In this document: positions 1,675 to 36,172 of the stretch, one piece after another | Layout of the letters: every line of letters begins with the position of its first letter | Numbering within the stretch: the first letter of the stretch is position 1 | NCBI GenBank assembly: GCA_965208105.1 | Contig: OZ242318.1 | Location: forward strand, 2,688,001 to 2,752,000 | Direction of reading: 5' to 3' | From: Candidatus Latescibacterota bacterium | GTDB taxonomy: Bacteria > Latescibacterota > UBA2968 > UBA8231 | Length of the DNA stretch: 64,000 nt | Translations under genes and position numbers: made by a program | The notes under the pieces: generated by a model | What the model saw: the letters and a program-made list of their open reading frames with translations, nothing else | Databases searched by the model: none | Told to the model about the DNA's origin: nothing

Positions 1675-4033
<2,359 letters not shown>

Positions 4034-12908: not shown

Positions 12909-13322
12909 GGTTCCGGGCTCCTTGTTGTGTTTGTGCAGCACGGTGCCGGCAACGGGAGGATTGCGGCTGTTCAACCTTGATTTTCCCGGTTAATATAGGA
13001 GATTTGCCGGCGAAATCCACTCGGCTGCTCCGGTTGCCTGCTGCCCTCTTCTGGCTTTCCGGCCCGCTGCCGAACCGAATTCACCCAACCCTGCCGGGAA
13101 GTCGGCAACGCGGCAGCCGGGCTGTTTTCGGCGCTTGATCAATCTGGGGCCGGTCCTATGTTTCCCGGAGTGACGCGTACCGAGCCCTGGAGTAGATTGC
13201 ATGGACCCATTGGAGGTGGCCGGTCCCCAATTGCGGCATGCGGTGACCGTGGGCCTGGCCGCAGGCTCGCCGCCCGCTGCTGGATCTCGAGCCAAACCCC
13301 GCAAGGATAAATGGAGGCATGA

Positions 13323-13796
13323 ATGTGGTCGCGGATTTCGGCGTCTGTGATGATCGCCGCTTTGTGGGGCTGCGCGGACAGGGCGGAAATCGGTGAAACC
13401 GCAGCCTATGTCGCCCGGGTGAAGAAACTCCACCATTACAACCAGGAGATCCAGACCCGCATCGACTACTTCGCCGACCTCCATCTCGATGCCGGAGAAG
13501 CAGAGATGGAATCCGTGCGCACCTTGATTGAAGATTACGCCAGGGAGGTGAAATTATTGGGGGGACCCGATGATCCGGCTCTCCGGAGAATTCACGAACT
13601 GTACGTCCGCTCCCTCGAGGAATTCCTGGATCCGGGCAAGGATCGATCGGAGGGACCTGGGCAGCGGCGCCGTGCAGTCGCCCCAGGGTTGCGGCAGTTG
13701 CGGCGGAATATCAGAGACCTGGTTCACCCGGGTTTAAGGGTGCTGCTGGCGCGACGCAACCTGGATGGGGACGAATACGATTTGCGATGGCCCTAG
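13323..13796 (+). CDS. hypothetical lipoprotein
   Basis: GGAGG RBS; MWSRISASVMIAALWGC lipobox; ends in TAG at 13794-13796. Confidence 0.65.
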   Translation: MWSRISASVMIAALWGCADRAEIGETAAYVARVKKLHHYNQEIQTRIDYFADLHLDAGEAEMESVRTLIEDYAREVKLLGGPDDPALRRIHELYVRSLEEFLDPGKDRSEGPGQRRRAVAPGLRQLRRNIRDLVHPGLRVLLARRNLDGDEYDLRWP

Positions 13797-15346
13797 ACCT
13801 TATGTATTGACGGAGATATGAAAGACCTCCTCCGATTTCGGTTTTCGGGGGTTATCTTTGGGAAAACGGAGTTCACCCAAAGACCTATCCCCAGCGAAAA
13901 GGAGGAGGCCATGCGTAAATCTACGAAATTCGTCGCCTTGGACATACATAAAGATTCGATCACCGTCGCCCTGGCCGGTGAAGGCCTCCAAGGGCCAAAG
14001 CTGTATGGAACGATACCGTCTACGGGCGCTGCGTTGTCCAAGCTGGCGGGCCAACTGGCCCGTGGTGGGACCTCGTTGCGGTTTTGCTACGAGGCCGGAC
14101 CCTGCGGCTACGGCGTCTACCGTCAGCTCACAGCCCTGGGGCACGCCTGCACGGTGGTGGCGCCCTCGCTGATCCCGCGTCGGCCGGGCGACCGCATCAA
14201 GACCGACCGCCGCGATGCTGTGTCTCTGGTGCGGCTTTTCCAACACGGCGAGTTGACCCCCGTGTGGGTGCCCGACGAAGCGCAGGAGGCGATGCGCGAT
14301 CTGGAGCGCTGCCGGGAAGACTTCAAGCACGCCGAGCGCCGCGTGCGCCAGCGGCTGAACAGCTTCTTGCAGCGCCACGGCCGGATCTACTCCGGGCGCA
14401 GTCGCTGGACCCAAGCCCACTTTCGCTGGCTGCAGACCCAGCGCTTCGATCATCCGGCCCAGCAGATCGTCTTTCAGGAATACGTGGACGCGGTACAGGA
14501 AGCCCAAGGTCGGATCCAGGGGTTGGACCAGGCCCTGCAGCAGGCGCTGGAGGGATGGTCTTTGGAAGGGGAGACGCGGGCTATGAGGGCGCTGCGCGGG
14601 GTAGACACGCTCACCGCGGTTACGACCCTGGCCGAGTTGGGGGACCTCACCCGCTTTGACTCGCCGCGCCAACTGATGGCCTTCGTCGGTCTGGTCCCCA
14701 GCGAGCATTCCAGCGGCTCCCGCCAAAAGCGAGGGGCGATCACCAAGGCGGGCAACGCCCACGTGCGGCGCGTGCTGGTGGAAGCGGCCTGGTGCTATCG
14801 CTTTCCCGCCCGCAAGACGGCCGCCTTGCAACGACGCGCCGAACAGACCGCACCCCCCATACAGGCCATCGCCTGGAAGGCACAGAAACGCCTGTGTGGA
14901 CGCTATCGACGGCTGAGTGGGCGAGGGATGCCGAAGAACAAGGTGTGCTGCGCGATCGCGCGGGAGCTTTTGGGTTTCATCTGGGCCATCGCCTGGGAGC
15001 AGAAACGCCCCGGCCGCCTCGTGGCCAGGAGACCTCGGATCGCCGCCTGATAAGCTCATCGTCTCAGAAGCCGGCATAGGACCTTTGCTCATGTAAATCG
15101 AAACGGGACAGAAGGGACCGGTCAGGAGAATCCTCGAAGACACTATGAGGCGCCTTTTCAGGCTGACCCTCGACCATAGACTGAGGCCGCTCCGCGACGC
15201 ACCCAGGACAGGCGGTAGCCAACCCGCGAATATCAGTCGGATCAACCGTCGCTACAGCGTCCCTTCTGTTGCCGAACAAACTCATGCAAAGATAACACCC
15301 GAAATGACCACCCCGGAGGGGGTTGACAACCGTCAATACATATCAG
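13795..15346 (+). mobile_element. IS110-family element, IS1111-like
   Basis: Perfect 13-bp subterminal IRs TATGTATTGACGG (13801-13813) and CCGTCAATACATA (15330-15342); AG dinucleotide at both boundaries; about 290-bp non-coding region 3' of the transposase. Confidence 0.88.
13911..15050 (+). CDS. IS110-family transposase/recombinase
   Basis: VALDIHKDSI, CYEAGPCG, IKTDRRDA, GLVPSEHSSG and ITKAGN motifs; GGAGGAGG RBS. Confidence 0.95.
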   Translation: MRKSTKFVALDIHKDSITVALAGEGLQGPKLYGTIPSTGAALSKLAGQLARGGTSLRFCYEAGPCGYGVYRQLTALGHACTVVAPSLIPRRPGDRIKTDRRDAVSLVRLFQHGELTPVWVPDEAQEAMRDLERCREDFKHAERRVRQRLNSFLQRHGRIYSGRSRWTQAHFRWLQTQRFDHPAQQIVFQEYVDAVQEAQGRIQGLDQALQQALEGWSLEGETRAMRALRGVDTLTAVTTLAELGDLTRFDSPRQLMAFVGLVPSEHSSGSRQKRGAITKAGNAHVRRVLVEAAWCYRFPARKTAALQRRAEQTAPPIQAIAWKAQKRLCGRYRRLSGRGMPKNKVCCAIARELLGFIWAIAWEQKRPGRLVARRPRIAA

Positions 15347-15507
15347 TGTCCCGTCGCAGAGATAGGTTGACGCAATTGGGCCGCCGAGGCGCCCGGCTCA
15401 CAAGGCGCCTGAGCGAGTCGTACCAGTGGTGTACGGCGAGTGAAGGCAACGCCGTGAGCCGGGATGGATCGGGGGAATAATGGCGACATATCTCTGCGAC
15501 GGGACAC
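15346..15507 (+). mobile_element. 162-bp MITE, copy 1
   Basis: Terminal IRs GTGTCCCGTCGCAGAGATA...TATCTCTGCGACGGGACAC; near-identical to copies at 17194 and 36011. Confidence 0.9.
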
Positions 15508-15517
15508 TGGCAGATTA

Positions 15518-16999
15518 TCAGGGAAGCAGGCGAGGTCGGATGAGAGGTACCCGGAATTGCAGTGCGGACATGAGACCGCTATAGAGAAAGCCGGCGTGGA
15601 AGAGCAGAAGGAAAGGCAGACCCAGGTAGAGATCGACCGACCATGCGCTGTAGAGAATGAAGCCGAAGTAGACGGCCATGGACAACTCGAGGAAGGCCTG
15701 CGCGTTTCTGCGAGCGCTGTATTTCCATTTCCTGACCGAGCTGTCCCGGTGAACCACTCCGTATTTGGGAGTGCGTCTGAAATCGCTCTTATGGCCGATC
15801 AACCCCTCGACCACCGCCCGGGAGTTGTTGATGCACAGGCTCATCCCCAGGGCCATCAGCAAGGGCAGATACTTGATCTGTGCCTTCCAGTTGGAATAGA
15901 GAGCCCGCTGTGAGGCAATGTAAAAACCGGAGATGGCCATGGTCGCCAGGGTGAACAGGGGCAGGTCGACGATGAGCAAGCGCTCCCACCCCAGGTGTGA
16001 ACGGATATTCACCACCGGCAGGCTCAGCAGGGCCACCAGGAGCATCAGGATATAGCAGATGTTGGTGGTGAGATGGAAAGTCGCCTCGATTTTCACCCTG
16101 AGGGGGAAGCTGCTGCCCCAGATTCGCGGCAGCAGCTTCTTTGCCGTCTGCGCCGAACCTTTGGTCCAGCGGTGCTGCTGCAACTTGAAGGCGTTTATTT
16201 CGACGGGGATTTCTCCAGGAACCGAAATCTGGGGCACATAGAGAAACCTCCAGCCTGCCAGTTGGGCCCTGTAGCTCAGGTCCAGGTCCTCGGTAAGGGT
16301 ATCGTGCTGCCAACCTCCGGCATCGACGATTGCCCGCTTCCTCCAGATGCCGGCGGTGCCGTTGAAATTGAAGAAGCGACCGGAGCGGTTGCGCGCCGTG
16401 TGCTCGATCATGAAGTGGCCGTCGAGGAAAATCGATTGTATTCGGGTCAGCAGGGAGTAACGGCGGTTGAGATGGCTCCAGCGCATCTGCACCATCCCGA
16501 TCCGGGGATCGGTGAAATAGTGGATGACCTCGTGCAGAATCCCGGGTGGAGGAACGAAGTCGGCGTCGAAGATGAGAACAAACTCCCCCTTGGCCTTTTC
16601 AAGGCCGGCCGCCAGGGCTCCGGCCTTGAAACCCCTGCGCGAACCGCGGTTCATGTACTCGATGTCGAGCCCCTTGCCGGCGAGGCGGCGGGTAATTTCG
16701 CGGGCCTTCTCACAGGTCTCGTCCCGGGAGTCGTCCAGGACCTGTATTTGCAAGCGGTCGCTGGGATATTCGATTCTGCTTACCGCTCCAAGAAGTCGTT
16801 CTACGACGTGAAGCTCGTTGTAGAGGGGAAGTTGAATGGTGACGGAGGGCAGGGTTTCGAAGCGCTCGCGGGGAAGAACGGGAGCGTCCTGGTGCTTGTA
16901 GAACAAGTGCAGAATCAGGTAGCGGTGGGCACCATAAATAGATAGCAGGCCTATCACCATGCAGTATAGGATCAGGATGGAACTTTCCCAGAATGTCAT
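15518..16999 (-). CDS. GT2 processive glycosyltransferase (cellulose-synthase-like)
   Basis: QLPLYNE, GFKAGAL, FDADF, TEDLDLS and QQHRW (D,D,D,QxxRW) motifs; C-terminal TM helices. Confidence 0.92.
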   Translation of the reverse strand: MTFWESSILILYCMVIGLLSIYGAHRYLILHLFYKHQDAPVLPRERFETLPSVTIQLPLYNELHVVERLLGAVSRIEYPSDRLQIQVLDDSRDETCEKAREITRRLAGKGLDIEYMNRGSRRGFKAGALAAGLEKAKGEFVLIFDADFVPPPGILHEVIHYFTDPRIGMVQMRWSHLNRRYSLLTRIQSIFLDGHFMIEHTARNRSGRFFNFNGTAGIWRKRAIVDAGGWQHDTLTEDLDLSYRAQLAGWRFLYVPQISVPGEIPVEINAFKLQQHRWTKGSAQTAKKLLPRIWGSSFPLRVKIEATFHLTTNICYILMLLVALLSLPVVNIRSHLGWERLLIVDLPLFTLATMAISGFYIASQRALYSNWKAQIKYLPLLMALGMSLCINNSRAVVEGLIGHKSDFRRTPKYGVVHRDSSVRKWKYSARRNAQAFLELSMAVYFGFILYSAWSVDLYLGLPFLLLFHAGFLYSGLMSALQFRVPLIRPRLLP

Positions 17000-17193
17000 C
17001 TTTCTATCATGGGAAATGAGGTGTGGATAGTGTCCCCTCCCGATACTTCCATGCGGCTACCCGGCAACGGCATCCTGACCGGAGGCGCGGGGCTGATCCG
17101 CCCGAATTCATCAACGCGGCTCCTCCGCGCGCCCCGCATGCCTGGCGTCTTCAGCCGGTCAGATTCTGCAGCTATTCCCGAGGCGACGCCCTA

Positions 17194-17355
17194 GTGTCCC
17201 GTCGCAGAGATATGTTGCCATTATTCCGCCGATCCATCCCGGCTCACGGCGTTGCCTTCCCTCGCCGTACACCACTGGTACGACTCGCTCAGGCGCCTTG
17301 TGAGCCGGGCGCCTCGGCGGCCCAATTGCGTCAACCTATCTCTGCGACGGGACAC
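17194..17355 (-). mobile_element. 162-bp MITE, copy 2
   Basis: Reverse complement of copy 1; flanked by CTA| and |TAG (TA duplication); abuts the secA stop codon. Confidence 0.9.
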
Positions 17356-36011: not shown

Positions 36012-36172
36012 TGTTCCGTCGCAGAGATAGGTTGACGAAATTGGGCCGCCGAGGCGCCCGGCTCACAAGGCGCCTGAGCGAGTCGTACCAGTGGTGTACG
36101 GCGAGTGAAGGCAAGGCCGTGAGCCGGGATGGATCGGCGGAAAAATGGCAACATATTTCTGCGACGGGACAC
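36011..36172 (+). mobile_element. 162-bp MITE, copy 3
   Basis: Same element; flanked by CTA| and |TAG; begins inside the TAG stop codon of the SDR gene. Confidence 0.9.

Follow-up and report, generated by a model that had tools for sequence, protein, structure and literature searches.

The window analysed in this study is a stretch of 64,000 nucleotides from the genome of a Candidatus Latescibacterota bacterium (assembly GCA_965208105.1, contig OZ242318.1, positions 2,688,001 to 2,752,000 of the forward strand). It carries an insertion sequence (IS) of the IS1111 type at 13797-15346, which is 1,550 bp long and sits exactly between a CTAG tetranucleotide and the first base of a 160-bp repeat at 15347-15506. 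Its shortness, lack of coding content and repetition, together with a flanking CTAG that looks like a duplication, led us to name this repeat a miniature inverted-repeat transposable element (MITE). The left junction reads CCCTAG^ACCTTATG and the right junction ATATCAG^TGTCCCGTCGCAG (carets mark the boundary between element and target here and below), with ...GGCCCTAG flanking the element on the left and TGTCCCGTCGCAGAGATA... on the right. The dinucleotide AG is common to both junctions, and the bounds become 13795-15344 when it is assigned to the left end. A preliminary description of this locus had placed an IS1111-like element precisely at the MITE terminus, and the junctions bear this out. 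Its coordinates, 13794-15360, reach 3 nt into the left flank and 14 nt into the MITE. Removal of 13797-15346 in silico gave CCCTAGTGTCCCGTCGCAG, and the same 17-mer CTAGTGTCCCGTCGCAG stands uninterrupted at 17191-17207, in agreement with the earlier statement that deletion of the IS with one AG kept restores the MITE junction. The TAG at 13794-13796 is also the stop codon of an open reading frame (ORF) at 13323-13796, and the 157-aa product of this ORF had no match in Pfam.

One long ORF is present on the forward strand of the element, starting with the ATG at 13911. Its product matched PF01548 (DEDD_Tnp_IS110) over residues 8-155 (E 1.3e-12) and PF02371 (Transposase_20) over residues 226-296 (E 1.6e-22), and scored 262 bits, at a cut-off of 140, with the NCBIfam model NF033542 for an 'IS110 family RNA-guided transposase'. 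The translation contains GLVPSEHSSG, which is the GL-P----S(t)G motif of the C-terminal domain. The element has a perfect 12-bp subterminal inverted repeat at its ends, ATGTATTGACGG and CCGTCAATACAT (13 bp counting one further T/A pair), with terminal extensions of AGACCTT (7) on the left, where the AG is counted, and ATC (3) on the right. The non-coding DNA amounts to 114 bp upstream of the gene (13797-13910) as compared to 296 bp downstream of it (15051-15346). Siddiquee et al. 2024 (PMC11187229) give subterminal repeats of 11-13 bp and extensions of 7 or 6 bp on the left and 3 bp on the right for the IS1111 family, and name the motif GL-P----SG, the subterminal repeats and the longer downstream non-coding region as the features that part this family from IS110 proper. 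The element belongs to the IS1111 family, within the 'IS110 family' of ISfinder.

The MITE is a non-coding element with 18-nt terminal inverted repeats. When CTAGTGTCCCGTCGCAG was searched in the window with at most two mismatches, six matches were found, and they are the ends of three MITEs; none was expected from 100 shuffles. The genome is a single 4.85-Mb contig. A genome-wide BLAST search with the MITE gave 138 intervals, 92 of them at least 150 bp long, and facing MITE repeats about 160 bp apart formed 88 pairs. In total 226 terminal-repeat-like ends were detected. The IS occupies 10 of them, and CTAG flanks 109 of the 216 unoccupied ends, which gives an occupancy of 10/119 for the CTAG-flanked ends. 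The tetranucleotide CTAG itself is strongly under-represented in this genome of 61.6% G+C, with 3298 matches on both strands over the 4.85 Mb, about 250 of them at MITE ends. No repeat pair around a transposase-sized element that could be an autonomous parent of the MITE was recognised in the genome, where five pairs 0.8-5.2 kb apart were looked at no further.

Next we collected the other copies of the IS. It occurs 12 times in the genome, at 96-100% identity, and the 379-aa recombinase ORF is intact in 10 of these copies, with one frameshift and one 120-bp deletion in the others. All 12 have CTAG on the left flank and TG on the right, and only AG is shared between the junctions; insertion is site- and orientation-specific and occurs without target duplication. 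The preliminary description had named beforehand, as the observation that would speak against it, that other copies lie in unrelated sequences. Ten of the 12 copies were found at the same MITE end sequence, CTAG^TGTCCC, adjoining ends of the form TGTCCCGT(C/G/A)GCAGA (CTAG^TGTCCCGTCGCAG), three at one end of the MITE and seven at the other, and the IS has its right end facing the repeat in all ten. In eight of these ten IS-bearing MITEs the 4 nt left of the IS recur as the 4 nt past the opposite end of the 160-bp MITE, which is what splitting of a pre-existing CTAG-MITE-CTAG unit by the IS would produce. The remaining two copies stand at CTAG^TGTT and CTAG^TGG. The first lies outside a second MITE-like element, at a distance of 4 bp; this element has two copies and starts GTGTCCTGC. 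The other, at CTAG^TGGTCGC, has a right flank that is an internal part of a ten-copy repeat; the left flank does not continue this repeat, and we therefore place this copy at a rearrangement. The two sites are 6- and 5-nt prefixes of TAGTGTC and are partial matches to the guides described below.

The second MITE-like element is about 113 bp long with ends GTGTCCTGCAAAT.../...GGACGCAACAC, is flanked by TA(G), and was found twice, at about 3050-3170 of locus L109 (genome 2091337-2091450) and at genome 2758958-2759072. The ten-copy repeat, which occurs in the window from about 61446 (genome 2749446-), is at least about 0.9 kb long at 99% identity and is probably another mobile element; one of its copies is truncated where an IS copy abuts (genome 3964967). 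In addition, a 108-bp fragment of the IS non-coding region was found on the minus strand at genome 4001325-4001432 (L015; 85% identity, element positions 1268-1377), just past the far end of a MITE whose near end holds a full IS, and is possibly the remnant of a second insertion. Of the 24 other genomes of the host family, the IS was present in 7 and the MITE family in 13, and in 16 genomes from other families of the class, the IS was found in two and the MITE in one; many of all the genomes searched are incomplete.

To compare the 3' non-coding region with its homologues we used 80 loci that encode relatives of the recombinase at 57-85% amino-acid identity, from metagenome-assembled genomes (MAGs) and genomes of many phyla. 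Two end-motif patterns located both ends in 58 of the loci, and two that lacked the true right end were dropped. With the window element this gave 57 elements and 47 distinct non-coding regions. When the regions were aligned, a block of about 180 nt stood out as conserved. For 41 sequences RNAalifold predicted 40 pairs in 7 helices: inside an outer stem, GGAG/CUCC and CCUC/GAGG helices close a first internal loop, which holds an inner hairpin, and GCGACG/CGUCGC closes a second internal loop with a small hairpin of its own. In these 41 sequences 93.4% of the paired cells could pair, as compared to 37-46% when the 3' partners were slid by 1-3 columns, and compensatory changes were seen in 24 of the 40 pairs as compared to 9-12 on sliding. 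None of 500 shuffles reached the observed values for pairing or compensation. From its many G-U pairs, the RNA can be assigned to the strand of the recombinase gene. The structure comes from the alignment only, and the fold of the single non-coding region was no better than its shuffles (z = -0.39).

The first internal loop follows the target. The preliminary description had picked out GACACTA (15139-15145) as a candidate guide, and this motif proved to lie in the 5' strand of the target loop, which tracks the right flank in the homologues. In the window element the reverse complement of this strand is TAG+TGTC+TT, in which the first seven bases are the last three of the left flank, including the AG core, and the first four of the MITE. 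At the homologous 9-nt position 34 distinct sequences were found among 46 non-coding regions, each tracking its own right flank; invariance of GACACTA among homologues with different targets, which had been named as a sign against a guide, was not seen. For instance, the guide AGGCTCCTA goes with TAG^GAGCCT (L028) and AGACTCCTA with TAG^GAGTCT (L029), and further pairs are TACCTACTA with TAG^TAGGTG, GGAAATCTA with TAG^ATTTCT and ACCGGGCTA with TAG^CCCGGG. At least 4 of 6 variable positions matched the own right flank in 32 of the 42 rows that could be scored, and by eye several of the remaining rows match after a one-base register shift.

The opposite strand of the same loop follows the left flank, with the consensus CGA-nn-(C/T)TAG-A across the homologues. 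Left flanks AATAG, AAGTAG, TTAG and TAAG go with 3' strands AATAGA, AAGTAGA, TTAGA and TAAGA, and in each of the 41 aligned RNAs the A after the core agrees with the base at which the IS left end starts. From this covariation the target-loop 3' strand is identified as a third guide, predicted to read the left flank, in addition to the two motifs of the preliminary description. Both strands were compared with shuffled flanks in a permutation test on 39 distinct element/flank pairs from 47 rows (one without the region, six with flanks cut by contig ends and one duplicate were omitted). The mean match run from the core was 3.92 into the own right flank as compared to 1.14 for shuffled flanks (maximum 1.90), and 2.62 into the left flank as compared to 1.25 (maximum 1.74); neither was reached in 5000 shuffles, figures that overstate independence because the homologues are related and share guides and targets. 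Guide-target covariation, which had been suggested as a check, came out in favour of guides.

Among the 12 copies in the genome the target-loop 5' strand is identical, and the RNA varies most in the 3' strand (CTCTAGA in nine copies, CCCTAGA in one, and CCATAGA in the window copy and one other). The three copies with a CC guide all have C at position -5, at a background of 37%, which is suggestive only (p about 0.05-0.07). Seven MITE ends in the genome are flanked by ATAG, and these would match the CCATAGA variant.

Short matches as such carry little information in this region. About one bare 7-mer match is expected by chance between the 296-nt region and a 32-nt target on both strands (a hand estimate), so that the 7-mer matches are not above chance, and five matches of at least 6 nt to target or donor were found. 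The significance of GACACTA and ATATCAG comes from the comparative analysis alone and not from k-mer matching. Other matches were rejected as guides because they lie in helices or are invariant among homologues with other targets. These were ACGGGACA at 15103-10, an 8-mer complementary to the MITE end that is part of the outer stem P1, CCGTCGC at 15246-52 in helix P6, CAACCGTC at 15243-50, which is a conserved donor-loop/P6 sequence, and GTCCC at 15259-63 in the 3' strand of P1.

The second internal loop matches the ends of the element itself. ATATCAG (15230-15236), the other candidate of the preliminary description, lies in the donor loop. The guide is the same as the last 7 nt of the own element in 39 of 41 aligned elements, and ATACCAG occurs there in exactly the three elements that end in ATACCAG. 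The 5' strand of this loop matches 3-5 of the first five left-end bases across the family, with a recurrent single mismatch, and is probably a fourth guide, to judge from the aligned loops. In the window element the donor loop (15200-15237) fits the right junction ATATCAG^TGTCC better than the abutted ends ATATCAG^ACCTT, the 3' strand being ATATCAG-T and the reverse complement of the 5' strand C-TGTCC-T. The same 5' strand is present in L019-L022, which have differing right flanks, and the fit to the MITE junction may be a coincidence or an ancestral state. The features of the locus are collected in Table 1.

Table 1. Features of the IS1111-type element, its predicted RNA and its MITE target (positions in the window).
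Feature	Position	Strand	Remarks
Left target half, CTAG flank of the MITE	13793-13796	+	Core dinucleotide AG at 13795-96, in common with the IS right end; nCTAG directly left of the element in 12/12 copies
IS1111-type insertion sequence	13797-15346	+	12 copies, 96-100% identity, identical ends
Left subterminal inverted repeat TATGTATTGACGG	13801-13813	+	12-13 bp, after extension AGACCT(T)
DEDD transposase/recombinase gene	13911-15050	+	379 aa; AGGAGG 5 nt upstream; Pfam, NCBIfam
Bridge/seekRNA-like structured RNA (predicted)	15107-15270	+	About 165 nt; outer stem P1 (15107-17 with 15260-70) around target loop, then donor loop; RNAalifold and covariation
Target-loop 5' strand, G-AAGACACTA-U	15136-15146	+	Guide GACACTA (15139-45) is the reverse complement of TAG+TGTC
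Target-loop 3' strand	15172-15182	+	Same sense as left flank, core and first IS base; CCATAGA in the window copy
Donor-loop 5' strand, CACCCAGGACAG	15200-15211	+	Partly complementary to core and IS left end (G.CCT); weaker support than the other three strands
Donor-loop 3' strand	15228-15246	+	Guide ATATCAG (15230-36), the same as the final 7 nt of the element
Outward-facing TTGACA at the right end	15323-15328	+	Candidate -35 of a circle-junction promoter; spacing and -10 poor here
Right subterminal inverted repeat CCGTCAATACATA	15330-15342	+	Followed by (A)TC and core AG
MITE, 160 bp	15347-15506	.	Provides the right target half through its left terminal repeat TGTCCCGTCGCAGAGATA
Unoccupied copy of the same MITE	17195-17354	.	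CTAG on both sides
Unoccupied copy of the same MITE	36012-36171	.	

Based on the anatomy of the element, the distribution of its copies, the covariation of the RNA structure and the covariation of guides with flanks, we consider it highly probable that this IS1111 element selects its insertion site by an RNA from its own 3' non-coding region. In the proposed mechanism an RNA from about 15107 to 15270 would be formed on the recombinase strand, with an outer stem around two internal loops. The 5' strand of the target loop would pair through GACACTA with the top strand of TAG^TGTC, and the 3' strand, in most copies (C/T)CTAG-A, with the bottom strand across left flank and core. About 8-9 bp, CTAG and then TGTC, would be specified by the two strands combined. 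In the genome there are 87 CTAGTGTC sites, and since 72 of them are at MITE ends and CTAG is rare, the MITE is the main location of the programmed 8-mer. The element would land between the flanking CTAG of a MITE and its terminal repeat because CTAG+TGTC is found mostly there, and would do so in one orientation, with recombination at the AG core and no target duplication. In the donor loop, the 3' strand ATATCAG would match the right end and core, and the 5' strand would partly match the core and left end, which would allow recognition of an excised circle at its abutted ends. By analogy with IS621, ISEc11, ISPa11 and ISKpn4, we infer that the element produces this RNA, which binds the recombinase and links the circular donor to the target. 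The MITE ends may have been chosen because they are numerous and harmless or neutral to the host.

Several observations weigh against this reading. The guides read only 4 nt of the MITE proper and two of the 12 copies lie elsewhere: the 'MITE specificity' is non-exclusive and rests on the rarity of CTAG. At its own site, CCCTAG, the CCATAGA of the window copy fails to match the C of CTAG, which reflects either a mutation after insertion or placement by the RNA of another copy. T at position -5 was found for 4 of the 9 copies with a TCTAG guide as compared to a background of 18%, which is weak and not significant (p=0.065), and the window donor-loop 5' strand matches the left end at only 3 of 5 positions after the core G. 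The relatedness behind the flank shuffles belongs here as well. A scan of 13000-16000 against Rfam at E<=1 gave no matching family, and a sigma-70-like promoter scan of 13700-15450 gave no sites. By eye, abutted ends give TTGACA-17-CATAAT in some relatives; the window element has a spacing of 19 nt and a poor -10. Contigs from RNA libraries (X15 and X16, from public runs) cover 13820-15371 at 90-95% likeness, which may be due to DNA carry-over or to relatives; none covers the single-copy flank, and the element is multi-copy. Neither the excision joint (13796 to 15347) nor the abutted-end joint was found in the contigs of four public runs, which miss rare forms, and the search of the assembly gave no abutted-end junction and no empty-site duplicate.

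Some of these points would also fit a family that uses the same mechanism and is now inactive in this genome, in which the window copy with its CCATAGA is decaying and depends on the RNA of other copies. We regard this as possible, though rather unlikely. The A at 15176 in the window copy and one other, as compared to C in the 10 others, and the broken recombinase gene in two of the 12 copies agree with inactivity, whereas the intact ORFs of the other ten copies, including the window copy, and the 96-100% identity of the copies argue against it. The lack of a circle or excision joint in the four public runs would fit as well, but is uninformative, as contigs cannot reveal rare junctions.

It is far less probable that the recombinase protein itself recognises the MITE terminal repeat and that the non-coding region is a leader or terminator with incidental matches to the target. 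Both loop strands vary with the flanks while the protein and the ends stay nearly constant, as in L028 and L029. Only 4 MITE nucleotides are matched and copies are also found at CTAG^TGT and CTAG^TG outside the MITE, which fits a short guide and not recognition of the 18-bp repeat. The number of 7-mer matches expected by chance does speak for protein recognition, and so does the finding that the matches ACGGGACA, CCGTCGC and CAACCGTC turned out to be conserved structural parts and not guides. The least probable explanation reverses the order or invokes recombination, with MITEs inserting beside IS ends, the IS and MITE spreading as a unit, or homologous recombination between MITEs spreading the IS: the constant adjacency of IS and MITE in a single arrangement and the one non-MITE copy at a rearrangement breakpoint would suit it, but 109 CTAG-bearing MITE ends have no IS, the MITE is present in 13 and the IS in 7 of the 24 family genomes, insertions are found at either MITE end (3 and 7 times), each IS has unique DNA to its left that has only CTAG in common and so offers no homology for copying by recombination, and the MITE's transposase could not move the pair because the left end of the IS has no MITE repeat.

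For the use of another transposon's end as a target there is a precedent. IS4321 and IS5075 are reportedly IS1111-type elements that insert into the end of another transposon in one orientation. Their target is a position inside the 38-bp repeat of a plasmid-borne transposon. The site of the present element is different, being the CTAG/repeat junction of a 160-bp non-autonomous element with about 90 chromosomal copies. Its recombinase shares 24.6-24.9% amino-acid identity with those of IS4321 and IS5075 over 79% of the protein, and the transposon-end habit is therefore not derived from a close common ancestor. The closest named transposase that we found is that of the ISEc45 family (48.2% identity over 94% of the protein). 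As seen in L117, this family also has subterminal repeats and a 3' non-coding region of about 260 bp, but its end sequences and repeats differ.

The element resembles ISEc11, ISPa11, ISKpn4 and ISPst6, as described in PMC11187229 and PMC11208160, in its DEDD recombinase, subterminal repeats, long downstream non-coding region and lack of target duplication. The order of its guides, first the one complementary to the top strand and then, 3' of it, the one complementary to the bottom strand, and their overlap on the target are those of the IS1111-type seekRNAs in PMC11187229. Durrant et al. 2024 (PMC11208160) predicted a right-end bridge RNA for 93.0% of IS1111 elements. Unlike in the known IS1111 seekRNA systems, the target is a MITE end and not a repetitive extragenic palindromic (REP) sequence, attC or short linear site. 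The recombinase, at 379 aa, is longer than the 330-350 aa quoted for the family in PMC11187229. With the bridge RNA of IS621 (IS110 group), as described in PMC11208160 and PMC13626964, the RNA has in common two internal loops, target first and donor second, and the use of one strand for each side of a dinucleotide core; the A after the core that matches the first base of the IS resembles the handshake-guide idea found there. However, the RNA lies downstream of the gene, at the right and not the left end, the core is AG and not CT, a long outer stem encloses both loops, and the strand order within the loops is that of the IS1111 types. Among the papers listed by a full-text literature search none dealt with IS110 or IS1111 elements targeting MITEs, which is not proof of absence. 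Close relatives of the element may already be included in the supplementary tables of PMC11187229 and PMC11208160, with targets and predicted RNAs for ISfinder entries.

In another genus of the host family, the relative in L101 (81% nucleotide identity) has the guides AAGACACTA and CACTAGA and the site CACTAG^TGTCCTGTCGCAGAAATA, and in the same genus L100 has the guide AGCGCACTA and the site TAG^TGTGCCGTCC. An inverted copy of the first 14 nt of the right flank was present 63-161 bp downstream at 10 of 51 assessable homologous loci (those with enough flank among the 56 loci of the collection with both ends defined). These 10 loci come from six genomes with the labels Desulfobulbaceae, Gammaproteobacteria and Halomonas, and likewise lie at the end of a MITE-like element.

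Twelve loci (L025, L028, L029, L038-L042, L049, L056, L065 and L079) have sites of the form CTAG^GAG(C/G/T)CTG..., mostly followed by TCGGA, in MAGs labelled Desulfobulbaceae, Gammaproteobacteria, Halomonas, Actinomycetes and Salinisphaeraceae. Where the flank is available, this site is the end of an inverted-repeat element of about 160 bp, and one MITE family with GAG(C/G/T)CTG ends seems to be common to these distant hosts. In L039 and L041, from a gammaproteobacterial relative, the right end (subterminal repeat and tip) is present twice at about 2922-3016, 77 bp apart, with inner ends ATATCAA.

The 10 of 51 loci with an inverted flank copy, and the relative from another genus at the same MITE family, bear on a wider and tentative reading. 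Perhaps, though we would not yet favour it, there is a cross-phylum clade of IS1111-type 'transposon-end hunters', in which the target loop keeps a (C/T)TAG half-site, that half-site being the flanking duplication of one MITE superfamily of about 130-160 bp, and the other half is rewritten to the resident repeat, so that the clade would track and hyperparasitise MITE families across bacteria.

The mechanism of the present element is that of the seekRNA and bridge RNA elements, and the element is a clear new example of it, not a new mechanism; what is known of the mechanism is unchanged by these results. IS1111-type guide RNAs have received much less study than IS621, and for them the homologues provide a natural data set of 34 target-loop sequences with their genomic sites, on one conserved scaffold. 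This data set fixes which DNA positions the loop positions read, namely the AG of the core with about 4-6 nt on its right and 2-4 nt on its left, and it adds a natural AG-core scaffold to those available for engineering. It also indicates how a short guide yields apparent specificity for a repeat family, by reading CTAG, a tetranucleotide otherwise avoided in the genome. In this uncultured lineage one mobile element uses the ends of another as its landing pads.

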